From Chrysomallon squamiferum (lineage: Eukaryota > Animalia > Mollusca): 64,000 bases of DNA. The position numbers and the translations under genes were made by a program. Below are positions 28,362-64,000 of the stretch, piece after piece. A model generated the notes under the pieces. The model saw nothing but the letters and a program-made list of their open reading frames with translations. It did no database searches and had not been told where the DNA came from. The stretch's first letter is position 1. The number at the start of each line of letters is the position of its first letter. Location of the stretch: positions 12,958,001 to 13,022,000 of the forward strand of contig CM022672.1 in the NCBI GenBank assembly GCA_012295275.1. The letters are read 5' to 3'.

Positions 28362-31300
28362 ATTCATGCATTCATGAGTATTTCTAATCACCTGACAGGT
28401 TTCACCAGTTTGGTTCTGATGTCTCTTTCTTTTTCCACTTGACGCCGTTTCAGCTTCTGAAGAGAATCCAACAAACCACTCAGAGCAATTTTGCGAAACT
28501 GACCTCCATGAACTTCCTTGATGTAAGACATTAACTGACGAACATCACAAAACAATCCCTGAAAATAAGCAAAGAAAAAATTAATTAAATAAAACAATTA
28601 AGTTTAATCCATTGAATGGTTTCAAATCCAAAACTTGTGCTATTTCAAAAACATCATGTTATAATGAAAAAAAATTAAAATGTGTGATGTATCATTCCAA
28701 AAATGTTATAAGAATAATATGTGCAAATTTGCGGTCACTAAATTTATGTTTTGTTAACTTTTATTTATTAATAATTTGTCTACTTAAAAAAAAATAAAAT
28801 TTTGAATCATGAATGTTTATTCAATGTTATCAATGTATGAATACATGACTGTAATTAATAGAAATAATTTAATTTTTATCAGAAATATTTTTGGTGCTAT
28901 TTTCACATCTTCTTGCAAAACTAGAGAATTGTATACATTAATTTGTATAAAATTAAATAAAATTAAATAAAATCTAAACATACAATATTTTCATGGCCGT
29001 ATAGTTCAGAAACACAGTCAACACATCTGGAGACAAATGGCTTGACAAGATTAGCTATCAGAACACCTTCCACACCCCTGTACCCTTCACCATTTATACT
29101 GTGACCAAAATTGTTAGCATAGCCATTCCTTGGTAAATTCTCCTGAGACACAGATTTCTTCTGAGCTGTAAAGTTATATAATGAAAAGGAAAATGGTTTA
29201 ACAGTTTATCCACATTTCTAACACAGAACAGCTTTACTTATAAGCAAAGTTATTTATGAACAACAAATCCTGAAGAAAAAAATTATTTAAATTTCAAGTA
29301 TTAAAAAATCTTTTACAAAATAAGCATAAGTTGCTGATATTAATATCTTTTAAAATGACGTGATAAAAATAATAATAATAAAAAAATATAATGTCTGTAA
29401 ACAAAAAGAATAAAATTACACAAAAGTTTAAAATATTCAAGTAACACATACGTAATGGTGACTGCAGAACTGTAGTTGGGTCAATGCAGAATCCAAGGAA
29501 TGCATGAAGAGAGTCAACAGTTTCCTGCAAATGTCTGTGTTTTACTATGTCTCGAAGAAACTTGCGGAAAAGAGGTGGGTTTCTGCGATACAACTGTTGT
29601 AAACAGTTCTGTCCTTTGATTCTCAGGTGATCACCTTGTGCGCCAATTATGCCATCACCACAGCCATGTGGACAGCCAAGATGTTGATAGATCCTGAATT
29701 TAAATTATTTCATTACTGACTGTTTATTAAAGAACAAGAATGTATATTTATTACGGTGTCTTGCAAAAAGGTCATGTTTATCACAGCAAGAATTTAAAAC
29801 ATGCTGATAATAATTAATCTGATTTTTCAATTATTTAGCCTTCTTTTGTTGACTTAATAAAAACAGGTGTTCAAAGCATATGTATATATATCTATTATAT
29901 TTCTTCTCAATTTACTTACTGTAAACTTAATTCAGCCAAACTTATAAAAGTAGTTATTTGAGAACTAAACTTAAAATTACTGTAATTAATTAATATCCAC
30001 AGCATTACCTAATGTCAAGAACAACTGTAAAAAGTGAATTTAGTAAGATTCTCTAACCTGAAAAGGCTTTCCATGGCAAGACTGTGTGCTGTTATCTCGT
30101 CATGATCTTTCGCTAACCCTTTTGGAGGTGGTGTTTTACCTTCTGGTGTGTCTGCACTTTCTGGGGTGATTGGTGACTTGAGTGGAGTGCTGGATCTGTT
30201 GGATTCAATGATATCAAGGTCAAGCAGACAGTTGAGAATGTTGAGGAGAACTTCACAGATCCGTGGCGATCTCTCGTTCATAGACACAAAGTGTACAGCT
30301 CGAAGCACAACTTTGTAGTTGATGTGACCATTGTCCTGTTCAAAAGATGGAAAATAATCTACACTAGATCTCATATGACTTATGAGGACATATATAGAGC
30401 TAATAAATAAAAATGATTCAGGATTTTTTAATATTTGTGGCACTGTGAATAGTTAAATAAATGGAAACTATTTATCACTAAAACCTTATTTTAATGTAAA
30501 TTGTTCATTTTAAATATTGCTGTTTTTAAATAACCTGAAGAAAGTATGTATGTCTGCACAATATTATAAATTAGTCTAATATTAAATACCTGAATATAGT
30601 GTTTTGATCCTGAAACTTCTTGGATTTCATCATCATGTTTGTAACAGATATTTGAGTCTGTCATGCTTCGAGGTAATTCTGGTGATGATTCTTTCTTGGT
30701 TGCATTAACAGGTCCAGCAAGTTCATAGTTTGATGTTGACATAGTCTTTGGTTCTGGGCTGTGCTCAGTGATTGTGATGATGGGTTTCTTAACAATCTCC
30801 GAACGAATGTTAAGATCATTCTGTGAGGAGTTGGATGAATCCTGACCACTCTGTAGTCCACTGCTACACAAACTCTCTTTGTCTGACTGTGGCAGAGTGG
30901 GCATGCTTTTGCGCTGAGCACTGTATGCAGACACCAAACCACCATACCGTTCTTCTCTGTCCCTGGTTCCATAACTTCCAATTGCCGAGTTTGGTCGTAC
31001 CATTTCTGGTTCTGTATCCATTGTTGAGACAGTGCAAGAACTAGAAGAATCATCTCGAGTTCCTCGAGAAAAGATATGCCCACTTCCAGTAGTGTGATCA
31101 TGTTTTGATGTCTTTGATGACAAAGATCCACTTTCTTCTACATCTCCATTTTCTTTTCTCCTTAGCAATGACTTCCCTGTGTCAAAGAACTGCCTTAGTT
31201 CCACCACACGAATTTTCTTGTAAGGTGGTTCTCTCCTTATTTCAGGACTGCTACATGTAGTCATGGGTCCTGGATGACCTGAATTTGCATTAGAAGGAAG

Positions 31301-34300
31301 TTTTGGTGATGGTGATCTTGAATCAGGGCTCTGAACAGGTGTAAATCCACTTGACCGCTCATCTGGAGTGGACACTTTACTCTGAAGAACCTGCAACACT
31401 GGAATGGGAAGAGATTTGCTCCGTGATCTTTCCATGTGCTCCATGCGATTCTGCTCATCACACACTTCAAGTGTTCTTTGATGGACGTATCGTAAGGCCC
31501 AGTATATTCCATCCTCATTCCAGTTGAGACAAAAAAGACATCTTAAAACAGCTACATCAAAATAGCTGGCACTCAGCAAATCTGGAGCTTCTGGTGCTCC
31601 AGGTACTGTTCTCCCACTTGCAACAGCACTGGCCAACTGCTGCTTTACATAGTCCTTATCAACACCTGATGTCAACTTTTGGAATGCATATGACTTTGAA
31701 TCAGGAAGAAAGGCAACAAGGGAATCCTTCTGGCCACATTTGCATATCATGGGACCATCACTGGTCTTCAAGGGCATCACAGTGTTGCAGTTCTCACAAA
31801 GAACTTCCATTGTAGCTGTCTGAGATTCAGAAGCAGCTGCTGACAAGGCACAGATGTCACTCATTCTGGCAATGGGAGCAAGAGGAGATTGGGACTCATG
31901 GATGCTGGTTCTGAACAAAAATGTATGTATATTTCCATTAAGAATGTACCCGTTAATCTGTTTACCATTCCAGCCATTTCCCATGAATATTTAATTTATT
32001 TATTTTTTTGTTTCTTTAATTAATTCCTTTAAAAATAAAAGTAATTAAAATAGTTTATCATAAATAGATTTTATCTCAGATTAACATCTATAACATTCTA
32101 AAAAGAGAAAAGGCTTATTTTATAATTAGTAAAAGAAACTGATTAAGTATAACAATATTTTTTTTTTGGTTTTTGGTTTACCTGCTAGGAGGTTCAGGAC
32201 ATGAAAAGAAAAGATTCTCTCTAGAAGTTCCCTTTCCAATGTAAATATTTGCAGCATTTGTATTAACCTAAAATAAAGGAAAAACATTTTTAATTCAGGT
32301 ATGTATTTATATGTGCGTGTGTATATTGAAACATATGAAAATCTAAATTAAATAAATAATCGTTTACTGATACTGATATTGTATTTCAAGAGTTACAAGA
32401 TTATAATTTGCTAATGGAAAGCTATAAGAACTTACCTTCAAAAGATTCCTCTGTGCCTTCAGAACACTGCGCTGTGGTTTAACAGGGGTAGAGAAACATG
32501 GAATATCTGGTTGACGATAATCCCACAGTGGTTGCCACAGAGTCAGGCCATTCTCAAGCTTCAGAGAATCAAAATCAGAATCTTTCATGGTATGAATCAA
32601 TGGTGCAAACAGGTACACAAACAGCTGAATGGTTCCAATAGGATGCATGTAGTTCTGAGGACTGTTGGCGCGTTCTTTGTTCCTCTCTGCATCAGCATCC
32701 TCACATTCAGAAGCAGCATCCAACATTATCCAATGAAGGGTGTAGAGCAGTTTAGTCTCACTGCTACTGAAAGGCTGGTCAGGGTGGTCTTGTTTGCGCT
32801 TAAGAAGCAGATTGGAACATGCATGCATCAAGTGTGGAAAGGCTGCTTGGATTGTTTTCCATCGTGACACACTCTGAATAGCTTCACACAGGCTTGGAGA
32901 CAGACCATGCAAGATATTCTGCACAACAACTCTTTCGAATGACTAGAAATGTAACATACAAAAAAATATTTTAAAATGTTTAAAATATATTGATTTACTT
33001 TAATTTAACAATTTTTTTTTTGGTAAAATCAGCATCATTTTCTTTTCCTATTTTTTTTTCCTATTTTTTATAATAATAATAATTATTATTATTTTTAAAT
33101 TTAATGAAACATACTGAAAATTAGGTTTAGACTTAAAGAATCGTTATATCAAAATCTAGGAATAAAAAACAATCCTGATCATCACACAGATCTAATATTT
33201 AATAGTGTACTGAAAATGGGAGTTTTTTTTTTTTTTTTTGATTTAACTGTTGAAATATCAATATTTATGTTTAAATTTTTTTTTTTTTTAAACATCCAAA
33301 ACCTCACCTGTATTCTTTACATAACAAAAAAAGTGTCATTTACATTAATATAAATGCAAGTTCTTCAGAACTAATTTACATGCAGGCTTTTGTTTGGTTA
33401 AACAGTTCATTTGTGTTTTATTTACATATTTTGTTCAATTACTAATGTAATTAATATAATGTATAATAAATAAAACTATTCTTGGACAATACTCAGTATT
33501 ATAGAACAGTTCAGTATAAAATTAATGTGCCTAACTTTTATGATTAAATAACAGTATGTGTATGTATATATCTATATATGTATGTGTGTGCATGTGTTTG
33601 TGTGTGTATATATAATTTGTGAATCCTAAAATAATGATATTTTTATCTATTTTGTAAAATATGATTTTTTTTCTTTTCTTATGTATGATACATTGATAAT
33701 AAATGTTTTTGCATAAAATATCAGTTTGCATTATCACTGTCCTGTCCTTGGCACTAAATTTTTCAGAGAAAATAAACAGTAACTGCAGACATTGTAACAA
33801 GACCAATGCTGATGAGTTGGTAGAAACATTGATCTGTGCAGTACACAGAACTAACTAATCAATACTGTGGTTTATTTTGGAGACTGGCTTCAGACAAGAT
33901 CCATAAAGCTGACAGCACCTCACTGGACTTAAGTAACTGTTCCCATGGCAACCAAAATTATATAACACTACATATTAAAAAGAAACCTTTACAAAAAAAA
34001 TCTTTCTGTAGATGGTATTACATATTATAATTGCTCTTTGATTATTTTCTTCTTTGCCCATGAATTATTTTGTGAAGGTTTTTTTATTTGTTTTATTTAT
34101 TTAAATTTTATTTTATTTTATTTTAATATTTTAAAATTTGTTTATGTTTTTCAAACTAATTTAACTGACAAAAAGTTTTACTGATTTAATTTAAAATCCC
34201 TTAATGTGGATTTAACTGGTTTCCTTGTGATTTTCTAGTTGAATATTTCAGTTACATTGCAGATACATGATTAAGGTGTTTTTTGATTTCATAATACATA

Positions 34301-35183: not shown

Positions 35184-36553
35184 ATATAAACAAATTATTT
35201 TTTTTTAATTATCTAACGGAACCCCTTTTGGAACAATTTATTTATTTATTTATTTGGCAAAAGAGAGTTGTTGTCATTTGTTTTATTTAGTTGCTTTTTT
35301 TTTGGGGGTTGTTCCATATTCAACTTCATTAATGTAAATAAGTACATATTTGACACAAGAAACCACCAAAATGATGTCATCATAGAATTAACCTTTGTAA
35401 TTTATTTAACACTGTTCATCATTTGCTTATTATCAGATTTACTTAATATCCTTTTCAGCTTTTCACCATTTTGTTGTGTTTAACTTTGTTTGACACCCAA
35501 TAGCTGATATTTGTTTTTGTGCTGGGGTGTTGTTAAATATTCATTCATTCATTCATTTCTTTTCAGCCTGTTCATGTTGGTTCTATTTCATTTCAATTGA
35601 AATCCCTTTAAATTTCATGTTTTGCCCAGAGCCTATTCATATACAATCAACAAACAAGTAATAAAATTAAAAATTAAAAATTAATAATCTGCATGTTTGT
35701 AGACTGATCATTTGAACTCCCAAAATTGTGCATCATTATAAATAATACCACAAATCTGAGATCCTCAGATTAACATGACAAAAACTGCCCATTCAGATTG
35801 GTTGGTGATGAGGATCACATGACCAAAATGGGCATTTTAGATTGGATAGTGAAGTGGCTTAATTTCAGTGAAAATAAGAAAGCAGGATCACTTGCCAAAA
35901 ATGGATGCCTCAGATTGGTTAATGATTACTAATGTTGGTAAAAAGGAATTAATTTTGTTAATGTTTGGCATAATATGTTATGGGGGATATTCTTTTATTT
36001 ATTTATTTATTTATTTATTTATTTTTTTATTATTATTTTTTTTTTTTTTTTTTTTTTTTTAGTAGAACCATTTAAATGAATTTTTTTTGGTGTGGGGGGC
36101 GAGTTGTTAGTATTATTTTCAACCGTGCTAAGTAGTTCCTTTGATATAGTCTAAATATAATATAATCTTTATCACACCTTGAATTAAACGTCGATCAGAC
36201 CTTGAATTAAACGTCTTAACAGTTTTTCATATGTAATATGCTTAAGTCAGAAATCAGTTTTCACCATAAATAGGTTATATAATTAGCAAAAATAAATTGA
36301 TTATTAAAAAGAAGCAACAGGTTGATTATGGATATCCGAACAAGACACATCGATAAAAAAAATATATATGTATATAAAAATATGTTAAAAGATATTTTGA
36401 AATTTAACATTCAAAGTATTTACATACTATATTTACAAATAATAATTATAAAATAATTTACCTGGTTTGTCTCCAGAAAAACGTTTGGATTGGAAGAGGC
36501 ACCGACTGGTCCCCTTCCATATCATCTCCACCGAGTTTCTTTCTCTTCGTCAT
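1..36553 (-). CDS. unc80: Protein unc-80 homolog (NALCN channel auxiliary subunit), multi-exon, 3' end beyond window
   Basis: Spliced translation starts [65 protein letters not shown] and contains UNC80 hallmarks ([91 protein letters not shown]). Coding exons in transcript order, all phases compatible: 36462-36553, 34610-34658, 32436-32942, 32182-32267, 30590-31910, 30058-30335, 29452-29693, 28984-29165, 28392-28558, 27893-28016, 27516-27669, 26793-27020, 26175-26353, 25718-25933, 25190-25325, 24450-24695, 23887-24012, 23292-23417, 22813-23015, 22244-22450, 20728-20904, 19866-20004, 19301-19409, 18622-18694, 18095-18229, 17609-17795, 14201-14329, 12565-12699, 11596-11696, 11326-11412, 10632-10715, 10273-10341, 9649-9747, 9251-9347, 8524-8645, 7890-7967, 7530-7637, 6974-7018, 6510-6694, 5898-6096, 5121-5228, 4665-4775, 4053-4210, 3746-3859, 3196-3412, 2721-2800, 2134-2257, 1663-1702, 1220-1275, 722-877, 197-320, then an acceptor at 3-4. 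Confidence 0.97.
2258..2720 (-). other. GC-AG intron in unc-80 with weak donor
   Basis: TTACAGAG|gcaaaa ... tcacag|ATACATG gives [15 protein letters not shown]; no GT donor nearby. Confidence 0.75.
3959..4021. repeat. (GATA)n(GACA)n microsatellite
   Basis: Direct reading. Confidence 0.95.
8019..8460. repeat. Degenerate local duplication in unc-80 intron
   Basis: GAATGTTTAAAG[AC]TACACTAGCACACAAAATT at ~8019 and ~8187; TACCATTTTAA...ATATTAAT...AACAGTA.TGCT at ~8082 and ~8377. Confidence 0.75.
10731..11020. repeat. 96-bp minisatellite, three near-identical copies, decaying into ACTGAAAT subrepeats to ~11200
   Basis: Units begin ACATCATCTCACAAGAC at 10731, 10827, 10923; explains the 32-aa periodic ORF 10678..11022. 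Confidence 0.95.
14201..14329 (-). CDS. unc80: unc-80 symmetric phase-1 exon, probable cassette exon
   Basis: ccacactag|CAACACAA...AATGAAG|gtatct; 129 nt; [43 protein letters not shown]; frame is preserved whether included or skipped; resembles the RRLSVSP...RRGSVW segment I recall at this position in vertebrate UNC80. Confidence 0.8.
14935..14940 (-). CDS. unc80: Candidate 6-nt microexon of unc-80 (CACTGA)
   Basis: Minus strand ...gtgcatgctcttttgtggcatttttgtgtgccccattccctggtttcactctgctgttgtgacacgtccctcag|CACTGA|gtaaatg; frame-preserving between phase-1 exons, no in-frame stop. Confidence 0.55.
   Translation of the reverse strand, partial: H
20471..20590. repeat. (ATGG)n-rich microsatellite
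   Basis: Direct reading. Confidence 0.9.
22451..22812 (-). other. GC-AG intron in unc-80
   Basis: TGGATCAAG|gcaagt ... tttcag|GTGGTAATT joins NLPWIK to VVIQLAN; strong GC-donor consensus. Confidence 0.88.
24138..24176. repeat. (CA)n microsatellite
   Basis: Direct reading. Confidence 0.95.
28303..28360. repeat. (TG)n microsatellite
   Basis: Direct reading. Confidence 0.95.
30590..31910 (-). CDS. unc80: unc-80 largest coding exon (exon 5, 1321 bp)
   Basis: Inside ORF 30491..31984; canonical AG/GT ends; contains [28 protein letters not shown] and [11 protein letters not shown]. Confidence 0.93.
32436..32942 (-). CDS. unc80: unc-80 exon 3 (UNC80 N-terminal domain)
   Basis: [37 protein letters not shown]...[17 protein letters not shown]; canonical splice sites, 169 codons. 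Confidence 0.95.
34356..34414. repeat. (CA)n microsatellite
   Basis: Direct reading. Confidence 0.95.
35481..35560 (+). mobile_element. Fragment of a SINE-like interspersed repeat with (TTCA)n tail
   Basis: GACACCCAATAGC...GCTGGGGTGT hairpin followed by TTCATTCATTCATTCA; resembles a high-copy gastropod repeat from memory only. Confidence 0.45.
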
Positions 36554-47823: not shown

Positions 47824-48806
47824 AGAACTCCGGATATACAACATCTGTCGCCGTCACCTGTCATTGCTTGGAGAATATATACGGGTCACGTGATAATTAC
47901 AACCTGTCAATTGTCGCACGCGAGGATAAGATCGCAGGTGACAGACGAACAGGCGCCACAGGGATTTGAAAGTTTTCACTCGCTGAAGTCAATCGATGGA
48001 GACACCTCAGAATACAGTTAACAACTGCTGTCTAGAAAGTATCATTTTCATTTGCTCTCTAATAACTGCTTGTTGATTTACGATAAAGAATAGTGTAGTT
48101 GAAAAAATAATAATAAAAAAAAGACGGTAAAACAAAAACTGAAGAAAAAAATCAACAAAAAACATAATAAAATTGATAATAGTTATTATTATGTCATCTT
48201 TAATTTAGTAATTATTTTCGTTTGGGGATGCGAAAAATCGTTAAAAAGTTTTATATTTATATTGCTGCGAGAAAAATAATTGAAATTAAAACAAAAGAGA
48301 AATGAAAAAGAACAGTTAAAAAATATCTTCTTTTTTTTTTCTTTCTTTTTTAAAAAATTATTAAAATACAGAAGTTATATAGTGAGGTGAATTTTTAAAA
48401 TTATCATAGTGGTGATTTAACAAGTCAAAAGAGATTTATAATGTGCACTTTCTAACGAATTCAGATATATTCAACTCCCATTTCTTGATCAAAATAACTG
48501 CAACAACTTAAGTTTATTTCAGTGACTGCTTGTCTGGGTGCACTGTCTAAAATCATCATGGCATATGTTATATATAAATATATTAATTACCTAGCTGTGA
48601 TTACTGGAGTTATAGGCATGTTTCAGCTGTTCTCTGATCGAAGCATATTAAAACTTCACAAACTTTACCATTAGAATCACTTATTATTGACTAGACTAAA
48701 TATCATTTTATTTTATTTTTCAGATAAAACATCTTGAACACTTCACTGATGCACAGATAGACTGTTTACATTCAATTACTTTATTAAATCTCTTTGACTG
48801 AGAAAA

Positions 48807-51414
48807 ATGTCTGAAAGTGACAAGGAATCAACAGGAATTTCAGAGAATTCGTCAAAAGAGCTCCTAGATAAATTTAAAGAGCAAACGTCCAGAACACCCA
48901 GCCCAGAGCTCAGTGTGAAATCCAATCTTTCGATTTCGGGTAGCAGTTGCGAAAACAGACCATGTCCCAAAGACTCGGGTAGTTTTATTCCAATGCAGAT
49001 AACATGTTCGTTGAATACAGACACAAAAAGTCAGAACAAATTAACAAATGAATCATCAAGTTCAAATTCATGGACTAAATCACCGAGTTCCCCTGGCAGT
49101 TCAAACCAAGACAAATATTTTCCTATCTGCGGCCATAATGAAGATATTTTGCCAGGCTCTAACAGATCACAACAAGGGATTTCTTCGGATTTAAAACCTG
49201 GCGGCGGTAATGAAAAACAGGCCGAGTTTACGGATACTTCGCGCGATACTATAAAGGGAAAAGGAAAATACAGTAACCATCTTCTGCCAACCAAAAACCG
49301 TAACAGTCCTAAGACTGTTTCAGGAACACTCCAAAAACAAGACGGCGCAACTTTCGAAAGCTGTATGAAGTTTGCTGAGATCTTGTACAAATGCACTTTA
49401 TGCACGACGTTGCCGTCGATCCTAACGTCGAAACAAAGCTTCCTGGAGCACGTTAAACAACAACATTTAAACGCGGAGACCTCGCGCTTCAGCTGCAGTC
49501 AGTGTGTGTTAAATTTCTGCATGGAAGAAGATTTAAACTTTCACGTTAAGGCCAACCATCCTCAGATTGGCAAAGGACCTCTTTCTCTTTCTGATCTCTC
49601 TGATGATTCAGATTCTAACGACAACAATGTCATTCAGGTGCAGTCACAAACGTCAAAGGCCATGTGGGCAGGCGACAAAGAACAAAAGACAAATGCTTGT
49701 AAAGTCGGTGGCTACAAGAAGTTATTTAAACCATTTCGAGATTCGCACGATTCAGTATCGGTTCGAGGTATCCAGGATATGGCATCGCTATCGCCAAAAG
49801 GACAAAGGCCTCTAGAATTACAAAGAGGAATAATGCATTCGGGATTTCATAATAAAAGTAAACAAAACAAATTGTTTCCTTGTAACATTTTTCAAAATTT
49901 AGATCAAAATACTTCAGAAATCAACAGTTACACTTCGTCAGGCATGGTGGAAATTGAAAAGCTAACGAATCATATGTTTCGACCGCAGAACCAAAACATT
50001 GGAACCATGTCGATGAAGGGCTCAAATCTTAACAGCTTTACACCAGAATTCGGTCGATATACTAAACTTGTTCGAGAGGGAGGGAATATTGTTTATTTCT
50101 GCCAAGTCTGTAACTGGAAATGTCCCGTTAAGACAATATTTCAGACCCACTGCCGAGGAATTCAGCACCAGAGCAAAGTTCAGTCAGCTGATGACAGTTC
50201 TGGAAACTCTTCCAATTCCCCTGGCCCATGTGATAACAGAAACGACAGCGAGATGCCAAGAAGGGAAAACAAACCTGTTAACCTGTGTATAAATAACGAC
50301 TCCAAAAAGAGGGATGCTGACAGGGAACTGACAGATACCTCTGAAGCAGAGAAAATATCCTCTCCTCTTGGAAACAAATCTCCGCTGAGGTCATTGCTGT
50401 CATCTTCTCACGGAGCATCGAGATGTACATCGAGTATGTTTCTTCAGAGAAATTCGTTGTCGGAAAAACAGATAATAAACGAAAATATTTCCAACGAGTA
50501 TGGCACCCGCAAAAATTTCCGTACAGATATCAATGGGTTAACAGGGAAAGATATTGGGTTTCTTAAAAGAAATTACGAATATTCTCATCCTTTTGGTACT
50601 GTTCCAAATACCCTGTATACTTCACGATTTATGACTGCTTTACAGCATTCTGAAAACGATGGTCATAGACTATCAACCAGTCGAAACAGAAGAAAACGCC
50701 CTGCTCCCGTAGCTTTGCGAAACCAATTTTCAGAATCTGATACTGATTCAGATTCAGAATGTCGCAAGAAAAACAAGGCAGATAATACAGAAATAACAAG
50801 AAAAAATAGCACGAAGAAAGAACTGTCTTCTTTTTATTCGTCTGCTAGATGTGATACTTATAATCCAAGCGATACTTCAAAATTTACTATTAATAACATT
50901 ATCGGTGAAAATTCGGAAATTCAGTCTAATAACGAATCCGCAAAACATCAAAAGATGTACATGGGAGAAAGAAAATGGTTGTCACCAAAACCGTCGGTCA
51001 CCTGCAACGGACAACCTCACATGATAGACGATCATACAGCATCAGTGAAATCTTTTTCACAAAGTGCTGTCTTCCACGTAAAGCAAGAACCAGCTGAAGA
51101 AAAAATCCAGAACTTTTCTTATTCCGAACAAAAATCAGAGAACTTTTCTTATTCGGAAGAAAAATCTCAGAACTTTGCATATGCTTGTTCCCGGTGTAGT
51201 TTTAGTACGGACTTCTTGGATTCGTACAGATACCACGTCTCCAAGGAACACGGTGCTGATTCACAGGATACGACTGACATCTGGAGATGTGGTGGATCGT
51301 TAACTTCTGACAAACCATATTGCTTCACAGGCGAACACGACGACTCGAATACCGAGAGAACAAACATGAACAGCGAAGGCTGGAAAATCGTAAAGATCAA
51401 AGGAGCACTTCCAG
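48807..51414 (+). CDS. Large first coding exon of the zinc-finger gene (869 codons, four Zn fingers)
   Basis: ORF 48807..51431; acceptor ttttcag at 48723, donor CCAG|gtaaag at 51415. Confidence 0.92.
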
Positions 51415-52972
51415 GTAAAGCTGGATTTTAAGTTATGGCCATGTTCACGTATCCGGACAGTTTATTGTACAGTGAAATTTCTCAAAACTGAACACAGCCG
51501 GTATCAATCAAAAATGCATGTTAATGAGGTTTTAAACCTGAATACTTGATAAATGACAAGACTGCTGAAATCGTTCGGTTCTAGGGGACTTCTGATTTGG
51601 AGAGAGTCCAGTTTTGAGAGGTTTCACTCTTAAGTTTATTTAAAATTAAAGTATTTCATATGAATAATATAATTATATATCAATAAAAATATTTTCTGTA
51701 ATAGTTTGTTTATAAAGTAATTTATTTTTTTTTTTTTCTTAGTCTTAGCCCTTTTATGAAAAAGAGATTTTGATAAATACTATTAACAAAAAAAAAAAGA
51801 ACAACATTGCAATAGTTGTGAGGAAATTATTATTATTATTTATTGAAATGTAAATTAAATATCGTATTTCAGAATTGAAAAATCATATGTTTGAAATGAA
51901 ATAAACGAAAAATAAATTTTAATACTTCAAATTTAATTTTACTTTTAAAGAAATAATTATTACTCGTAAATAGGTTTTGATAAGATTATTTTGATTTAAA
52001 AAAGGTCGTAACAGAAATCTTAACAACTAGCTTACATTCCAAACACTTTAGTGACGTCGCTAATTCTTTATTTTTATCCATGTGATAAATAAAAACTGTT
52101 TTATTGGAATATGTTTATTTTAAACAAATTATTCTGAAGACACATAAAATTTTAGTTGCTAACATTTAACTTTTTAGTCACATTGAAATGTACACGCATC
52201 GCTGTCTATCAAGTTAAGTCAGTAATCGAACTGCATACAGAATCACGAAGAACTGGGTGAAAATCCACAGTTATCGCATGTCAAATAAAGCTGAAAATCG
52301 TATATTCTTATCAGCTACGAGAATGACAAAAAGCATGTCTTAATAACGTTCAAATATCGATATTAGATTTCGTTTCAAAAATAACGTTTTATATATGGTC
52401 TTTTGTAGACCTCGTACAAGCTTGTCCACGTGGAAACGTATCACGTGATCTCCTTCTGCAGAAATTAAGCATCATTCTGAATCTTCCGGACGTGGTCCAG
52501 TGGGGTCCTGCTTGCAATAAAGCAGTCAGGGAACTCTTTCCAGCAAGCTTAGCTCAGAGAAAGGGAAAATATAAAAAGTATCCTTGTCTTGTTGAATTTT
52601 ATTTGCTACTTCTTATTTGTGCAGCATTAGATTATATAATTATTCAAAACAGTGTTGTTATCATCATCATCATTATCATCATCATTGAATTTATTTAGTT
52701 ATTTATTTATATTATTATTTATTTATTTATTACAAATCTTTTTACGTCAGTACAGTTTTCAAGTCAGTTTCAGATCAGAGAAAAGTCGTCTCTGTGATTT
52801 TAGACGACACACTTGTATCAAGGACTTGAATTTATCTCTAGTTATCTGATACTGCTGCTTGTCCCGGTATATCATTGCTGTTCACTTCAGCGTAATTATA
52901 ACTTTGCCGTCGACTTTCTTTATTTGCTCTATAACGTTATAGCGGGGGAATTATGTAAAGATATATGTCTGT

Positions 52973-53015
<43 letters not shown>

Positions 53016-54049
53016 CACTCAAAAAATACTCTGTTCGTCTATGATAGTCCGAAATCCCCGCCCCTTCATCATCACGGGGCCAAGTATTTTGTGTGTGGTT
53101 TATCTACTCATGTAAAGTATGGGGTATCAAATTCAATACTAACAAATACTTCTTTTCATTCCACCTTTTAGATAATGTTTGTTTCTATAGTTCAAAAAAT
53201 TGCCTTTAAATTTTTCGTTTCTTTTTTTTCATGGCCTAATTATAAAGATAGCATTATATTTGGGAAATGTTTATGTATATATATATATATATCAGGGTTT
53301 CTGAAAATGGGTTCCGCGGTCAGTTTCAGAGAAATAACCATTAATTCATATTCAGAGTTTGGAGATTAATGATAAAAAAATAATGTAAATTCCATTCTTG
53401 TTGCACTTCGTTACTATCTCTCCGAGACCACTATCGTCAGATGAACGTAAAATAAAGATATAAAAACACAAAAAAATCATTCTTTTCGAAATATTTTGGA
53501 ACTTTAGGTTTCGCAGTTTTTACAAATAGAACAAAAAGTTTAAGAATATTTAAAATAAATAAATAAACATTAAAAAAATAATAAAAAATTAATAAAAATA
53601 AAAAATATGAGAAAAAAAGAAAATATAAAAATTAAATAAAAGACAGTAACATTTATTTTATTTATTTTTTAAATTTAGTCCTTCATTTTTAAAAAAAAAA
53701 CTAAGGTGCCAAGAATATTTGTGTTACCATACATATATACGGCCAGACTAATGATGACATTAAGGATGTGAAAATTAACGTTAATTTGCCTTAACTTCAC
53801 CAGAACATATTTCTTTGGCCTGGAATACCTGGAGCAGCCGACACAAACACAAGATGACAGCAGCGACACGGAGACTGTCAATTACCAGCCTCTGCGCGAT
53901 ATGTCACGTGATCTTGACCTCATTATTCGTTTTTACCTGGTTGCTTTTTTTTTGTTTTGTTTTGTTTTTTTTTCTTTGTTTTTTTCTCTCTCAGATTGTT
54001 GTTTGTTTTCAGCTCGGTTGATTGTATTCTTTGTGTTTCGTTGTTGTTG

Positions 54050-54080
<31 letters not shown>

Positions 54081-54569
54081 AAGCAAAAAGGAAACAAATG
54101 GCATAAATACATTTTTTAAATAACGGATTAATAATAATAATAATAATAAATAATAAAAAGTTATTGGATTTACTATCTCTTCGAAACGAATAATTAAATA
54201 AAATAATTAGAAAATATTTTTGTTCAGTTATTTTATTAATTTTTTTTTTTTTCTTTTATTTTATTTTATTGTTGTTTTTTCACTAGAAATAAATATTTAT
54301 TTATTTATTTGATTAATTTATCTTGATTAATGGGTGTGTTCGATCTGTTACAGAAACAGTGTACTGGACAGGCGATATGGAGTCGGGAGTGTCACGTGAC
54401 CAGGTGCTAGAAGTGCTGGGAACTAAGATACGAGAGCCGGATATTCTTCACTGGGGTGTTCAGTGTAATCGCGCTGCCAGGATTCTGTTTCCCGACATTC
54501 AAATGAAACGAAAAGGAAAATATAAATCATATCCTTTTTTCAGTTTTTCTTTCATTCTTTTTATTGTCC

Positions 54570-54626
<57 letters not shown>

Positions 54627-56485
54627 TAATTTATATTATTTATAATACATTTATTATTATTATATTTTTTTTTAATATGTTTTATTTATTTAATATTTAG
54701 ATATATTCTTAGAACTGGATCTGAATTGGTAGTAATGAAATAGTATAAATTTGTTATCAGTTACTTATAGACTGAAAAATGATTTCTGAATTTAGCCTCC
54801 GTAATATTCTATTTTTGCAACAACAAAAAAAAAAAAAATATCAGTTAACTGAAATAGTTTTATTTATTATTATTATTTTTATAAAAACATCACCTTTTAA
54901 TTTTTATTTTTTATTTTTTAATAATATTGAGTTGTACAATACAGTCATTACCAAGTTCTAGAGATGTTTTTGTTGTTATTTAAAAAATAAAGAAAAATAA
55001 ATAAATAAATCGTGCGCATGGAATTTGATAAAATTTTGGCAGCAGCGTTGTTGTTTTTGTTGTTTTTGTTGTTGTTGTTTTTGTTAACTTAAAGGAACAG
55101 TGTTTATTAGCGGTATATTTTTGTGTTTCTAAAACCTTTTAAGTGTGTTAATGCCTAAATGATTTGCTTATTAGTAACTGTCAATCTGCATTTCTAATTA
55201 TAACCTTAACATACAAACTACAGTTTTCTACGGGGTCGAATTTATGAACAGTCTACATAAAAATGTAAGTAGCCTATTTATTGAACTATTTGCTTTTATA
55301 TGTCCATTTTAAAAATAAATAAACAACGACAAAACACATAACGTTATTTAGCCATATTTTCAAAAGGGCGTATCATAAAAGATACTATGATTTTATTGTT
55401 TAAAAATGATGGCAATGAATGGATTCATAATCTTTATTTTTATTTAAAAAATTGTATCCTATTTCTTTCTCTTAAAATTCCCTTCAGTTAATGTTTACAT
55501 TTCAAAATCTTTTAATATTACAGTTTTCAATCATGTATCTCTTGTATTGTATAATATAAAAGTAAACCTGTTAGGCAATTCATGGTCTGCTCTTTTGAAT
55601 TATAAACTATATTACCTTTTCGTTAGCTGGAACTGGAAATTAATCGACTAATGGAGGATTGATCCAGAAATTCATTATTCTCCTGTCCGACACTCGTATT
55701 TAGAAAAATAATAATAAAAAATACAGCTTTAATCTGTTTCTTATTAACTCTATAGTATAACTTAAAATTAAAATATTTTAATTTATTATTTTTTTTTTTT
55801 TTTTTAGTTGACAAGTGTTCTGAAACCAAGACAAATAAGGGGTAATTCCGAATCATCTGATGATGTCACGATGAATGAAACAGAACAAAATGTCATGCCC
55901 CTGCAAGGTGAGTAATTTTTATTATTTTACTGTTACTGTTTTTTAACACTTATTAAATTTGTAAACTTTATTATGCTTGAATTTCACTGAAATTTATTTT
56001 ATAGTTGTTAAGTTATCAAATTATAAAAAAAAAAAAAAATATTTTTGGTTAGTTCAGGTCATTCATTCGTGCAAAAGGTGAGACGAAACTCATATTTATT
56101 TATTCAATTTACAGATTTCTAAATTCATTTTCTATGCCTCAAAAATAAAATAAATTCATATTTTTATTTTCAGGCTGATCCCTGCGTGGATAAACAATGT
56201 CCACGATTTCAACATCACTGGCATAGTTCTGAAAATCAGCAAGAAAGCTCAACACAACCAGTGAATAGTGAAACAAGAAGTGTTTCACCTGGTTCCAAAA
56301 AAGAACAATCGCAGACAGACAGCATAGCAGGGCAGTGTGAATCAAACGTAAACGAAACGAATACAGAACACTTTCCTTTGAATACACCTGACCCTGATAC
56401 TAGCATGGCTTTAAAACCTTGCTCTCCTAAAAACCAGGCTTCATCTAACCTGACCAGTGGTGATGACACGTTGAGACAGATCTGA
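48807..56485 (+). CDS. Uncharacterised zinc-finger protein with two C-terminal RFX-like winged-helix repeats (putative transcriptional repressor)
   Basis: Exons 48807-51414, 52409-52577, 53804-53939, 54354-54528, 55219-55264, then uncertain terminal exon(s) (55627-55662, 55808-55907, 56174-56485). Upstream in-frame stop at 48795. Zn fingers: YKCTLC..HVKQQH, FSCSQC..HVKANH, U1/matrin-like YFCQVC..HCRGIQH, YACSRC..HVSKEH. C-terminal repeats share VSRD..W G..CN.A.R.LFP....RKGKYK.T.F.G.E. One-base frame discrepancy at the end of exon 3 (see findings). Confidence 0.82.
51470..51629. mobile_element. ~160-bp MITE, Tc1/mariner/pogo-like
   Basis: Imperfect terminal inverted repeats CAGTGAAATTTCTCAAAACTGAAC ... 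GTCCAGTTTTGAGAGGTTTCACTC; TA on the left flank; non-coding interior. Confidence 0.7.
52578..53803 (+). other. U12-type (minor spliceosome) intron, GT-AG subtype
   Basis: 5' end GTATCCTTG, branch CCTTAAC at 53789-53795, then ttcaccag; no polypyrimidine tract; phase 2; restores KGKYKK-TYFFG. Confidence 0.9.
54529..55218 (+). other. U12-type (minor spliceosome) intron, AT-AC subtype
   Basis: 5' end ATATCCTTTT, branch CCTTAAC at 55204-55210, then atacaaac; phase 2; restores KGKYKS-TVFYG. An alternative in-frame AC lies at 55220-55221. Confidence 0.92.
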
Positions 56486-57203
56486 GTTCTGTGTGAGATT
56501 TTTAATAACTCATGAACAGTGCAAGAATATTTTTTATTTAATGATGACATTATATATATATATATATATATTTCTTGTTCCTAAGTTTGTCAAGTGTGAT
56601 ATTTCTAAATATGACAGGAATATATTTTTTTCTTTCATCTAAAACAACTTTTAATTAAATTATTAAAAATGTTGATATATTATCATCAGAAACATTAAAA
56701 GTCAGTCTAGTCAAACTGCAAGTCTATTAAATGACAGTTATTTTTGTGATATATCTATACGTATTTATTGTTTCAATATTTTCCATTCAGTGACATATCG
56801 GATTTAAGGTGAACATGCCAACAGATTCGACTTTATACACTGAAATTCATTTGATAACAAACATATCCCTATTTTTAAATTCTTCACATGACCCATGATC
56901 TGAAAATTCACTGTATTATTGTGATCAATACATACCATGTTGTGTTCATGAACAGTACATACCAATAACTTTTATGACATATTTATTAACACAGATTCAT
57001 TATTTATTTTGTTTCATAAAAATACTACTAATATATAACATAACTTAGTTCACTCATCTATATAACAACACAGAAAGAGAAGTTTTTTGGGGTTATATAA
57101 AAATAAATTTATTCTGAAAGCATAATACATTTTGAAAATAATAAAATAATAAAATAGGCTGTACTAGTGATGAATAGTCACAACTCTGACTGTGTTGTTA
57201 ATA

Positions 57204-60200
57204 TTAATCACAACTTGTTTGTAATTCAGCTGATGTATTTTCATGACTGGATGTTTTGTCTAATTCTTCTGTGTGTGCACATTTTCTTTCTACTGTTTTG
57301 TTCAGATGAATATTGTATCTTCTTATTGATTTCCACAAAGCTTCTTCTTCATCTGTAAAAAAAAAAATATATTTTGCCATGAAATAAATACAAGATTTTA
57401 CTTGAATCATTTGTCTGTGTGTTTTTTATATGATTTTCCCCCCTCAAGCATAATGGTCAAGTATATTCATTCCTAAGTCATGAATTTTGCTGTCAATAAC
57501 ATAACATTAATAAAAAGTAATTTTTTTTTTTTTTTTTACTGATTTCTCATAATAAAAATATAAAAAAAGATGCAAATAAAAGCATTTCTTAATACCCCAG
57601 CAGCAATATTCTTATTTAAAAAGTACAAAAAATAATAATAATATCAATTTCAGTATTTACTATAAATTACTTTTGACTCAAATGGCATAATCACCTTTTG
57701 TAATGACACAGTATCTGTCCTCATTACCAGTAAGAACCACAAATATTTTAGGAAATTCCAGAACACATTTTCCAGTTAGGTTGTCATTGATTGATTTATC
57801 TGCTTCAAGTCTGTGAAACCTGTAAAAACAAAAAGTGTTTTTGTTTCTTTAAGTCCAAGCTCACCAAGTCCAGTAATGAATGACTTACAAGATTTTGATG
57901 ATATTTATTGTAAATAATGAAAAAATTTATATTAATTTTTCTCAATAAAAAAGAAAATTAGATTTTATCTTCTGTGATACTAATTATACATTAGTAAAAT
58001 ATATAACATTAAATTTAAATTATTTTTGTAATTTAATACTCAATACAATTTACATTATTAATTTTTGATAATATTGATCCTATTCCTGTTTTAAATATGT
58101 AACTTTGATATACCTCACTTTATTTGCTGGCAATCCTTCAACCTTCATAAACAAATAACAAGATTCCAGCCCAGCCTGGACATACTCCTGTAACTTGTGC
58201 CTTTTTATTGGATCTGAATCTGTTGGGTGTATATATTTCTCAAGTTCTTCTCCTAAGGGAATAGATTCTTTCACACTAAAAAAAATCCACAACATTTTAC
58301 TGTCATAAAAAATTTCTAAAAGCAGAATTACACATTTTATTTCAGATACAGTGATATGGATAAATAGCCTTAATTTATTAACAATATCTTTGTAATTATT
58401 GTTTTATTCATTTATGGACAATAGCATCAGATAATCTTAGAATATGCTAATATAACAAGTCCATGATGATGTATCTTAAAGTGTGATATTTTACATATAA
58501 AAATAAATCCATAACAGAACTTATAAATTTAACAAAAGATCCATACAAGGTTGATGAAACAACAACTTTGCTGTAATTTATTCTAATCAAATGATAAAAT
58601 ATCAATCTTTAATATATAGCTATATTATGCAGCTTTTAGTGTTTACTTATAATCATATAATATGTTAACAAAATCAAATTTTCTAATACCAAATGGTAAA
58701 TATATAATCTTGATCTAATTATTATATTTAACTGCTTACAGTTTGTCTGTGAATGTTTCTCCAGCCTGTGGAAAGCACCATTCAATATGCCACATAATCT
58801 GTTTTTTTCTAAAAATAAAAATAATATACTTATTTAATCTCAAAGAAAATAAAAAACATAATTTAGAATTTCATTTTCTGCTCAGAGTTAATGTTTTTAT
58901 TTATAATTAAGGATTTTTTAAATTGTTTTAATTTGTATTTATTAAAATCAAAATAATAATAATAACAATGCATTTTAAATATGAGTGTGTTTTCTTTACC
59001 AAACTGTCAGTGGAACTCATAAATATTAAATATATATCAAATTATGTCACTTAGCTGTAATTCATTTAAAAGAAAAATTAACCGTACACAGTATTTTTGA
59101 AAAAGATTTTAATTTTGATTAGTAAAACAAAATACCTGAACATATAAAATGTGGAATTAATTTTCCTCTTTGTCATGGGATATGGTAAGAGTTTTAGCTC
59201 AATACCTCGCAGCCTGGCTTGTTTAACAAGCTGGTGTAACTGAATAAAACAAAACAATATGGACATCCCTTAAAATAACACATATACGTGTGGTGTGCGT
59301 ACTGAGAAAAACATTTTAAAATATTTTTTGTTTTCAAGTTATATAAATACATTGACAGTTTAATTAAACAAAATAATCAAATTTGCTCATTTCTAGGTTC
59401 ACTTCCATCTGAGTTAAAGATAACTGCTAAAAGAACATACACAGTTCAGATTCGGAATGTCTGACACAGTTCAAATATTAAACAAACTAAAAATCACTGT
59501 TGAACCTATTTACAAATTTGGTTTCGCTCACAGACTATAGTTGTTTTATTATTGTTAATATAGATATTATAATAATGTTTAAATTATAAAAAGATAAAAT
59601 TTTATTACTCTTTTTGGTATTCGTTTACATTTTGGTAGAAAATCTCTACATGCATTGTCTGCTCTTCTGCCACCTTCTTCCAGAAATCTGTAATCTACAA
59701 GTATTTAAACATGTTTTACTACACAAAGTGAGTGAGTTTGTTTACACAATTATTAACTATATAATATCAAGCTATTTCTACTTCCTTTGACTAACAGTGT
59801 TACAAGGAATGAAAAATTAAAGGAAGATAACCAACATTTTATTTAATGATGCACTCAACATTTGAATAAATAAAGATAAAACAGAAAGAAGATAAACCAG
59901 AATTATATAGAATTAAACCATTTAAAATTATACTAATGCATTTTATAATTGAGGCATAAAGACAATATCAGTAAAAAAAAAATTAAATAATAATTTTGTA
60001 TTATTATTATTATTTCTTTTTTCATAACTACAACATGCTTTTTGGTACAGATGGCACCATGGGTGAAAGTTATAGGTCTGAAACATTATTACCATCTAGA
60101 ATTCCTTTTCTCTGTGTACATACCATTAAGGAGATGGGTGTCTGTGAAACTTTTCACTGCCACATAGCCAGTTTTATCTCGAATTCCACTACAATTTGTG

Positions 60201-60745
60201 TTTTGTTTGTGTTGTTTCACGCAAATTAGACAACAAGTTTCAACAAAACATCGAGGACAACGATACTTTGATGGATTTTCACCACACACAGAACATGATG
60301 GTGTCCTGATAGAGAAGACAGATAATTAGAAGTAACATGTAACTAACAAAGTAACATTCTGTTACATAGCCTACACATTTTTACAGAAAAATATTTTTAT
60401 CAATTGTGTTTTTTACATGTTGAAAATTATATCACCTTGAGTTAATATCACCTAGAATATGGTGTTCTCTTCTGACGTAACCTAATAGTTATATTATTTT
60501 ACTACTAGTAGCCAAGTAGAAGTTTACTAGCAATAGTACATAGTCATGATAGTGATATTCAATGATTCATTGATTCAATTTCAAGGGAAGTAGTACTTCA
60601 AGTATGACTTATTTTTAATACTTTTTTGATATTATATTTCTGCATAATTTAACAAAGTATTTCTTGTGTCAATAATCATTATAAATTACTTTCGTTTCAT
60701 AGACACATCGTCTGCCGAAATATCTACTTCTGTTTCTTCTCCCAT
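57204..60745 (-). CDS. ZNHIT6: Box C/D snoRNA protein 1 (zf-HIT domain protein 6, BCD1), 310 aa, complete
   Basis: Exons 60690-60745, 60124-60305, 59609-59694, 59136-59239, 58740-58808, 58114-58275, 57695-57819, 57204-57352, phases consistent. zf-HIT CSVCGENPSKYRCPRCFVETCCLICVKQHKQNTNCSGIRDKT followed by LLNDYRFLEE, MTKRKINST, IMWHIEWCFP, NLTGKCVLEFPKIFV typical of BCD1. Confidence 0.94.
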
Positions 60746-61445
60746 CTTCGTAATCGTGTTGTTGATATAAATTATGAAAACACGTGTGAATAAGCGTAGC
60801 AAACAAAACACAACTGCGGGATAGTCTAATGTGAAATTGACAGAGAATTAGGACCAGTTCATTAAAATATTAATGTAATAATATAATGATCCCGTTTACA
60901 TCAAATTATAAGGATTTAAGTCAAGAAGAAATGCATTTTACTTTTTTATAAACAAATAAACAACTAAATAAAAAAATGGGAAATGTTGAGAAATCATCGG
61001 AACTCTTTCCAAAAATAAAATCGTTCTTCCCGTCGCCACAGTCCAGTTGCTTTATCATGGTTCGCATTTTAAGTCTTGAATACACTAAACCGGTGACGTT
61101 TTACACAGAGAGCTGTAAAGAGTAAATCGATTAATCAATACCTTTAACAACAAACTTCCCTCCCGCATTTATTATGATGAACATCGGCCATGACATATTA
61201 CGTGATTTATTCAGCAATCACGTTTATCATAAATACAGAGTTACAAGAACAGATACATACATAATATTTTTAGCGGTAAATCTCAGTGATGTTACTGGTT
61301 GTGGTTGAAACAGTTCTGAGACCCTTCGTAAACAACTATCAAGATAATACAGCAGGTCGACCATTCTTTCGGGAGCATAGTCTTTTCTTCGAAAATGTTA
61401 TACTGAGCAGACCATAGAATGATACTGCTTTAAAATCTTATTTCG
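60746..61445. promoter_or_regulatory. Probable bidirectional promoter, ZNHIT6 / GABBR1
   Basis: Only 700 bp between divergent start codons; CpGs retained relative to flanking introns; E-box CACGTG at 60781-60786. Confidence 0.7.
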
Positions 61446-62692
61446 ATGAAAATGGCTTTAATGAACATATTCTGTAAATGTGTTTGTTTAGCATTATTAA
61501 GTTGCATGGTTCTTGGCATCAAGAACAAAACCCTGACTGTTGGAGGTATTTTCCCAATGTCAGGCAGCTGGGCAGGGGGACAGGCATGTCTGCCAGCTGT
61601 ATTAATGGCACTGGAGGATGTTAACAACAGAACTGATATATTGCCAGATTATCACTTGGAAATGGAATATAATGACAGCCAGGTAAAACTGATATATATT
61701 TCTTTGACTGATTAACATGAAAAAAAAAAAAATATATATAATAATAAAGATTTTAAAATAGTATAATTATTTAACTGTACAAGACAACATTCAAATTAAT
61801 ATACACTCTTTGTCATAAACAATCTAAATAATTATCACTTCACTGATGCACCAAAAAATAAAGCATTAAGCTACATTGCCAGATAATAATAATTAAAATA
61901 ATCATTTCCATATTTATATATATTGAAATATAATTTTGAAACCACCCCCATAAATCTTTCATAATAATGTGAATTTTTTTCTAATTATTATTTTTAAAAA
62001 TATTTTTCAGTGTATGCCTGGTCTTGGAACAAAAGTGTTATATCAGTTGCTATATGAACCACCAACCAAAATCATGTTGTTGTCTGGTTGCAGCATAGTT
62101 TCCACATTTGTTGCCCAGGCTGCCAAAATGTGGAATTTAGTTGTGGTGAGATATGTGTATTTTATTAAATATTGATTTTATATACATTTTTTAAATTAAG
62201 AATTTCATCAACCTTTTTACATTATTTATTTATTTTCGATATGAACATTTTCTTTCTCAAAAATATTATATTATCATCAGCAGAACTGATATTTGAATTA
62301 TTTAAAAGATGTTTTTAAATGTAGTTTGCATTATAATTAAAATAAATAATAATGGTAACTAAATAATCACAATATATATTTTTTAACTGTAATATTTTTG
62401 CTACTAACAGAATATTATAATATATTTCATTATGAAATGTGTTATATTTCAGCTTGCTTATGGATCTAGCTCACCAGCTCTGTCAAACAGAGAACGATTC
62501 CCTACATTTTTCAGAACTCATCCATCAGCAACTCTTCATAATCCAATAAGAGTCAAAGTTCTCAAACGATTTCACTGGACTCGAATTGCAACCATCCATG
62601 AAACAGAGGAACTCTTTTCATCTGTACGATTTCTCAGCCATTATTTCTTTATAACTTGGAAAAATGTTACATCTGCACATCTACACATGGAC

Positions 62693-62759
<67 letters not shown>

Positions 62760-63865
62760 TACACATATACATATACATATACATACACACAAACACACAG
62801 ATGCACACACTTACACACACAGAGAACATATACAATTAACACAAGTTATATATAAATTATGAGAAAGTACATTTTTATAGTTCATAGCTTTGATGGAAAT
62901 TTACATTTAGGTGTAAAAAATAATTATGGAAACATTTTTACATCATTTAAAAAAAAATATATTGTGGAACATTTACAGCTAAAAGATTACTTCAGTTAAC
63001 TTAATAGTATATTAATTACATAATATTTTCTGATTGTGATTATGATAATTTTTATAAATATGCTTATAATCACAGCAATTCCCTTTATGTATTTGTATTC
63101 AGTTTAAATGTCAAATTAAATGTAAATTTGTTACTCAAATAGGAGCATTTAATTTTTTCTTAATATTTAATTAACCTCCATCAATGATTAAAATATAATT
63201 CTATAACATTTTTACTTGGAATTATAATACCTGTTTTTAAAACTCAAAATAATTGTAAACATGCCCAGATTTTCATTTATATATAAAAATAACATTAGTA
63301 AATATTATGTATATATTGTACATATTATGCGTGGTACAAGAACTCTGTAAATATATTGATTTACAGACAATAGAAGATCTTGAAACCAGAGTGAAATCAG
63401 CAGGGATTGAGATAGCTATAAGACAAAGTTTTCTCCGAGATCCAGCCAATGCTGTCAGGACTCTGAAGGTAACTTCTGTAATAATGTCAATAGTTCTAAC
63501 ATGTTTATAAAATGAATTCTTCAGTGCTGGTTTTTTTATTATTTTTTTTTTCATCCCTGATGGAAATAGTTAATGCTTGTTTTTTGTCTTGACTAATTGT
63601 CACAAAGCATGTTTTTGTTTAACCTTTTTTCCTTATTGTGGAAATGAACACATAAATAATTCTCTATATTAGTCTGAATGTTCCTTATAAAAAAATGTTG
63701 CTTTGTCCTGTTTAATCATTGTAATTACTGTATGTATGTATGTATGTATTTATTTATATTAATATTATTATTATTATTATTATTATTTTTATTTTTCAGA
63801 AACAGGATGCTCGTATTATTGTTGGTGTATTTTATGAAGATATGGCAAGAAGAGTTTTCTGCCAG
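61446..63865 (+). CDS. GABBR1: GABA-B receptor subunit 1, 5' part (signal peptide and Venus flytrap domain), continues beyond window
   Basis: Exons 61446-61682, 62011-62145, 62453-62623, 63367-63468, 63800-63865. [57 protein letters not shown] and [21 protein letters not shown] are GABA-B1-type; no sushi domains. Confidence 0.96.
62691..62790. repeat. (ACATAC)n hexanucleotide microsatellite in GABBR1 intron
   Basis: Direct reading; source of the HIHIHI/TYTYTY ORFs. Confidence 0.95.
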
Positions 63866-64000
63866 GTGATTGTTTTGCTTCAAAATACATTTACAAAAAC
63901 ATTACATATCTTTGCTTATATTTTAAGTTTTAACAAAGGTCGTTTTAATATTTTATTAAAATAATTTTAAACAACATTACTATTTTAAATACATTTAAAT

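Follow-up and report, generated by a model that had tools for sequence, protein, structure and literature searches.

How can one gene carry two U12-type (minor) introns at equivalent codons, one with GT-AG and the other with AT-AC termini? The question is raised by a stretch of 64,000 nucleotides (nt) of the mollusc Chrysomallon squamiferum (assembly GCA_012295275.1, contig CM022672.1, positions 12,958,001 to 13,022,000), which is called the window below and whose numbering is used throughout. A gene on its plus strand encodes a finger protein with two tandem repeats. An earlier note made from the sequence had proposed that an exon-intron-exon module was duplicated inside this gene and that one copy switched intron subtype. 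I found that the two introns interrupt the same phase-2 codon of the two repeats in one mRNA. Quite probably, a module with an AT-AC intron was duplicated and the intron of copy 1 later became GT-AG.

Two minor introns at one codon

The introns in and around the repeats are as follows.

51415 to 52408, plus strand: U2-type GT-AG intron, phase 1, before repeat 1; removal implied by the length of RNA contigs
52578 to 53803, plus strand: U12-type GT-AG intron, phase 2, 1226 nt, branch motif at 53789 to 53795; the spliced length fits contigs X2 and X3, and the homologue P0003 is contiguous across it
53940 to 54353, plus strand: U2-type GT-AG intron, phase 1, after L-P, before the repeat 2 core; in all 3 RNA runs examined, loose ends of RNA lead from the linker exon to 54354
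54529 to 55218, plus strand: U12-type AT-AC intron, phase 2, 690 nt, branch motif at 55204 to 55210; junction 54528^55219 in 3 of the 3 RNA runs examined, unspliced in contig X5

The donor of the repeat-1 intron is GTATCCTTG at 52578 (GT-type) and that of the repeat-2 intron is ATATCCTTT at 54529 (AT-type), each a motif match at an exon end. Both introns have the RTATCCTTY-like 5′ splice site and, near the 3′ end, the CCTTRAC branch motif of U12 introns. The branch motif is CCTTAAC at 53789 and at 55204, and it stands 8 nt from the 3′ end, which is AG (53803) in the first intron and AC (55218) in the second. Both introns lie 3′ of a GKYK motif in phase 2. They thus combine a homologous position with different termini, by which a subtype switch is recognized. 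The U2 introns preceding them also occupy homologous positions, as had been claimed; both are in phase 1 after L-P. The equal 8-nt spacing of the two U12 introns, which had been noted as a further likeness, is real. It was rejected as a sign of shared descent since orthologous introns have 9 and 10 nt. The optimum given for U12 introns is 11-13 nt (PMC3584512).

Is such a pair of motifs expected by chance? Over the whole window there are 5 donor-like sites against 4.5 in simulation, which is the chance level, and the motifs alone would be no proof. They are weighty because the exon ends are known independently, from RNA and from homologous proteins. A donor would occur by chance at a fixed exon end with a probability of about 7e-5, and a branch motif in range of a fixed exon start with one of about 8e-5. 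As for donor-like sites elsewhere, a third GT-type site lies at 12730 (plus strand), at the end of a coding-looking open frame. Those at 35446 and 39498 (minus strand) appear intronic, and the one at 50355 is within the large first coding exon.

Are both introns removed, and are both repeats joined? The large exon is present in five sequencing runs, four of which are recorded as RNA, all from one study. Contigs from three RNA runs (X1, X2, X3) and from a run of unrecorded kind (X5) were compared over repeat 2; assembled contigs drop rare forms. Contigs X1 to X3 break at 54528 and resume at 55219. Therefore, the AT-AC junction 54528^55219 is in use, seen directly in all three RNA runs as the earlier note had predicted, while X5 is unspliced at this intron. 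Upstream of repeat 2, the same three contigs run on into the linker exon and connect the two repeats in frame, so that the repeats are not parts of separate transcripts.

The other predicted junction, 52577^53804, was not seen directly and is approached by length. Contigs X2 and X3 reach 2996 nt upstream. This is the length expected from the exons 48724-51414 and 52409-52577 plus a linker of 137 nt. It would be 4222 nt if the GT-AG intron were retained, or 2827 nt if the repeat-1 exon were skipped. X1 reaches less far (1481 nt). Provided that the contigs begin at an exon boundary, the fit is exact in two of the three RNA runs, and together with the contiguous homologue P0003 it indicates indirectly that the GT-AG intron is removed.

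In the window, the linker exon has 136 nt and goes out of frame at a run of five T (53930-53934). At this place the RNA contigs show six letters and stay in frame (R-F-L-P), so that the window letters reflect either an error of the consensus or a different allele. The frame break had also suggested alternative terminal modules, ending in either repeat 1 or repeat 2, which the RNA rules out. Is the gene a frameshifted pseudogene, or is the AT-AC intron an assembly artefact? The broken frame at 53930-53934 and a last join whose phase misfits would speak for this, but the RNA is in frame at the first break and contains the AT-AC junction. Moreover, the unspliced X5 contig matches the AT-type donor with no differences, and the modules are 75-84% identical to P0003. 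This explanation is largely refuted and hardly credible.

Relatives of the gene and the direction of a probable switch

The closest named homologue is P0003 of the gastropod Gigantopelta aegis, with 84% and 75% identity in the module exons. When 1.84 billion representatives were searched with a profile, 61 matched, and two-module proteins were found in gastropods, bivalves, cephalopods, a chiton, and the brachiopod Lingula. No description of a mollusc/brachiopod two-module finger protein family was found in the open-access literature. A tree built from 61 module rows over 59 columns, whose bootstrap had not settled, separates the repeats by copy and not by species, Lingula included, with support of 90/98; one long unnamed row groups with repeat 1. 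Since the two-repeat gene occurs in molluscs and Lingula and the repeats group by copy, the duplication is ancient. The proposal of an internal exon-intron-exon duplication is thus supported by the two groups of repeats and by the matching positions of the U12 introns and the preceding U2 introns.

What kind of module was duplicated? Both repeats were predicted to be winged helices, and with these predicted models RFX5 and RFX1 came top in all four structure searches. RFX5 was the top structural match, with Z 10.1 and a root-mean-square deviation of 2.9 over 80 aligned residues for one repeat, and Z 9.0 and 2.9 over 75 for the other. An E2F-like domain was rejected; E2F-DP first appears at rank 49 with Z 4.6. 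Sequence searches against solved structures gave nothing relevant. To count as RFX, a domain should be 40% or more identical to known RFX domains (PMC2873420); nine DNA-contact residues and X-box binding are further marks of the family. The modeled fold agrees with RFX and the identity falls short, so that the protein is RFX-like on the predicted model and not an RFX member. The modules may bind DNA. An unnamed finger protein (P0068, P0084, P0085) has a single RFX-like module and is a candidate for a pre-duplication or reduced relative. A search seeded with it returned no further relatives.

Does the intron position also lead to RFX? Both structural alignments end at RFX5 residue 169, which is 11 residues past the split codon, so that the split codon falls on residue 158. 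As judged from the alignment end points only, the equivalent residue is Lys in repeat 1 and Ser or Thr in repeat 2; K158 of RFX5 contacts DNA (PMC12311785). RFX5 and RFX7 are minor-intron genes (bioRxiv 10.64898/2026.08.20.745718). The minor donor of RFX5 is GT-type after CAA in human and mouse, and that of mouse Rfx7 is AT-type after TAA (PMC6717393 supplement). The human RFX5 intron is listed there at chr1:151344279-151344416. Because TAA cannot be an in-frame codon, the Rfx7 donor fits phase 2 in a lysine codon. Since the split codon maps to K158 and the RFX5 and Rfx7 donors follow AA, it is likely that the twin introns and the RFX5/RFX7 minor intron are of shared descent. The position of the RFX5 intron relative to the protein was not found in open-access text.

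Might both introns instead have been gained independently at the same codon, after the duplication of an intron-free module? In favor of this, the pre-duplication gene has no direct record, and the wing is uninterrupted in the database protein of the single-module relative (P0068, P0085). However, gain of U12 introns is reported to be very rare (PMC2831892). The upstream phase-1 U2 intron is also common to both repeats, and the RFX5 and Rfx7 donors fit the same codon. Independent gain is accordingly very improbable.

How widespread are the two introns? In a survey of 69 proteins (8 without the complete motif), 38 of 40 unspliced module ends in database proteins read x-Y-P, namely 13 of 15 for repeat 1 and 25 of 25 for repeat 2. 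This is the translation expected from an RTATCC donor, from which GT and AT cannot be distinguished. Therefore, both U12 donors are widespread in the family. A Pinctada gene is annotated as two proteins (P0026 and P0037), both of which stop or change course where a U12 donor is read through.

The subtype itself was read from metagenome loci. All six (L001-L006) have the repeat-1 intron at the same codon. The donor is AT-type U12 in the mussel-like L001 and the clam-like L002 and L003. L002 and L003 have an AC acceptor with spacings of 10 and 9 nt; L001 ends before the acceptor. In L004-L006, from unplaced animals, the repeat-1 intron is a U2 GT-AG intron. The outgroup sample for the direction of the switch thus comprises three AT-type and three U2 loci for repeat 1; for repeat 2, the only U12 intron seen in DNA is that of the window. 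The repeat-2 intron is absent from L005, and a search for repeat-2 DNA in viral contigs gave no match. A 24-residue match from prokaryote genomes (L007) in the repeat-2 DNA search was treated as chance. In addition, L004 (at 1284) and L005 (at 4484) have an extra U2 intron within repeat 2 that is absent from the window gene, and in the repeat-1 intron of L004 the acceptor and the beginning of the exon are partly duplicated at about 650-760.

A later subtype change is supported because the orthologous repeat-1 introns are AT-type in all three bivalve-like loci. By parsimony alone the direction is tied. Since changes are mostly reported to run from AT-AC to GT-AG (PMC2831892, PMC3584512), a late change of this kind is favored, and AT-AC is likely the ancestral state. 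The switch in one copy that the earlier note had proposed is therefore supported, with a direction that is likely but unproven. The two subtypes at homologous codons are likely an intragenic snapshot of conversion, as it had said, but the GT/AT contrast is not conserved across molluscs. The lack of conservation at repeat 1 favors drift over function.

The history may be pictured as follows. A module with one AT-AC intron, which would be the intron of the DNA-binding domain genes RFX5 and RFX7, was presumably duplicated before the split of molluscs and brachiopods. The first copy would later have drifted to GT-AG in the lineage of this snail, with both intron ends changed, perhaps through an AT-AG intermediate such as that proposed in PMC1557818. 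The switch was probably neutral. Both introns would be removed by the minor spliceosome. Retention of either would remove the last wing strand, and the full two-domain protein would need both splicing events.

Alternatively, repeat 1 may have turned GT-AG soon after the duplication and the bivalves may have reverted to AT-AC, in which case the window retains an old difference. The number of events is equal, and the U2 GT-AG introns of L004-L006 would be one step from a GT-AG U12 intron (PMC2831892). However, the reading requires a change from GT-AG to AT-AC, which is reported as rare, and the AT-type is found in one mussel-like and two clam-like loci. An early switch is rather unlikely.

Several points weigh against a late switch of an intron shared with RFX5/RFX7. 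The GT-AG junction is evidenced by length, all RNA support comes from a single study, and the module tree has few columns. Foldseek E-values for the RFX matches exceed 0.001, structural alignments to RFX give 12-18% identity, and the Pfam RFX profile (PF02257) was matched by 2 of 16 proteins, at 15 bits where the cut-off is 27. Residue 158 was reached from the end points of the alignments, on the assumption that the last 11 residues are gapless. That the RFX5 minor intron lies inside codon 158 is my presumption and was not found in print. The repeat-2 subtype is known from the window only. Finally, the directional prior alone separates the late from the early switch, and strict one-way change is questioned by PMC2831892.

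Gene structure and neighborhood

The coding exons of the gene are listed below. The C2H2-type finger label comes from inspection of motifs, the source names of homologues, and sub-threshold Pfam matches of homologues.

48724 to 51414, plus strand: large first coding exon, ATG at 48807, four C2H2-like Cys/His motifs, ends with L-P, phase 1; 47.6% identity to P0003 over 921 columns
52409 to 52577, plus strand: repeat 1 core exon, RFX-like winged helix up to the wing in the predicted model
53804 to 53939, plus strand: linker exon with the last wing strand of repeat 1, an acidic linker, and the first helix of repeat 2; one base short at 53930-53934 relative to RNA
54354 to 54528, plus strand: repeat 2 core exon, from RNA and the predicted model
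55219 to 55264, plus strand: exon with the last wing strand of repeat 2; first 30 nt in RNA, 3′ end placed by a GTAAGT donor
55808 to 55907, plus strand: putative penultimate coding exon, from an open frame and splice motifs
56174 to 56485, plus strand: putative last coding exon with the stop codon; 36.8% identity to the P0003 C-terminus, with a join phase that misfits in the window letters

The donor at 55908 is in phase 1, but the conserved last exon would require phase 0; there may be a further slip in the consensus, or a different splice site. Another gene appears to lie at about 57200-60300 (minus strand), tail to tail with the twin-intron gene, and the 1337-nt downstream overhang of contig X2 may reach it. 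At about 61400-64000 (plus strand), there are exons resembling what I take to be a GABA-B receptor subunit. Open frames at about 3000-33000 (minus strand) belong to a long gene that presumably resembles UNC80. A 499-codon open frame at 30494-31990 (minus strand) within a G+C-richer patch is possibly a mobile element.

Known systems and meaning

Is there a precedent? In open-access text, no homologous twin minor introns of different subtype within one gene were found. PAXIP1 and SLC8B1, which I take to have repeated domains, are candidate precedents only. AT-type and GT-type minor donors are on record for PAXIP1 (PMC6717393). Human genes with two or three minor introns number 50 and 3, 53 in total (PMC6717393), and in part of that list no case was seen in which they occupy homologous sites within internal repeats. 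Internal repeats are also present in the voltage-gated Na and Ca channel alpha genes, most of which have two U12 introns in mammals; in the available parts of PMC6259924 and PMC2831892, however, domain I is the only one for which a conserved AT-AC intron is mentioned, with no twin elsewhere.

Subtype switching between orthologues is known from 36 clusters with both subtypes (PMC2831892), which resemble the present case in having homologous introns with differing termini and also in U12-to-U2 conversion and loss at the same site. They differ in that the window has both subtypes in internal repeats of one gene and one transcript. The earlier note had regarded conversion as normally a matter of comparison across species. 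Paralogues of one genome already differ in subtype, however (mouse Rfx5 GT, Rfx7 AT). RFX5 and RFX7 share the winged-helix fold, the donor after AA, and the GT/AT contrast with the twin introns, but they are separate one-domain genes, whereas the window protein has two modules and fingers. The twin-intron gene is thus a case of a known process, new in being within one gene.

What does the pair offer? A functional difference between AT-AC and GT-AG minor introns is an open question. Because the twin introns have common descent, one transcript, the same promoter and cell, and a similar exon context, they form a matched pair for it. Loss of CENATAC affects mainly A-type introns (PMC8280824). The repeat-2 AT-AC intron might be CENATAC-responsive and its GT-AG twin not, which would tune the output of one- versus two-domain protein. 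Such use of the subtype split is distinctly doubtful; if true, it would be a natural matched experiment on the persistence of both subtypes, in an intron lineage shared with RFX5/RFX7.

For the family, database proteins read through the U12 donors at 38 module ends, where some named gene models also stop short. Across its members, one intron position shows an AT-type U12 intron, a GT-AG U12 intron, a U2 intron, and absence, which is the proposed decay path on a single lineage. If the RFX5/RFX7 link is true, the intron position would give an ancestry to an unnamed mollusc/brachiopod regulator family that sequence searches left unplaced.
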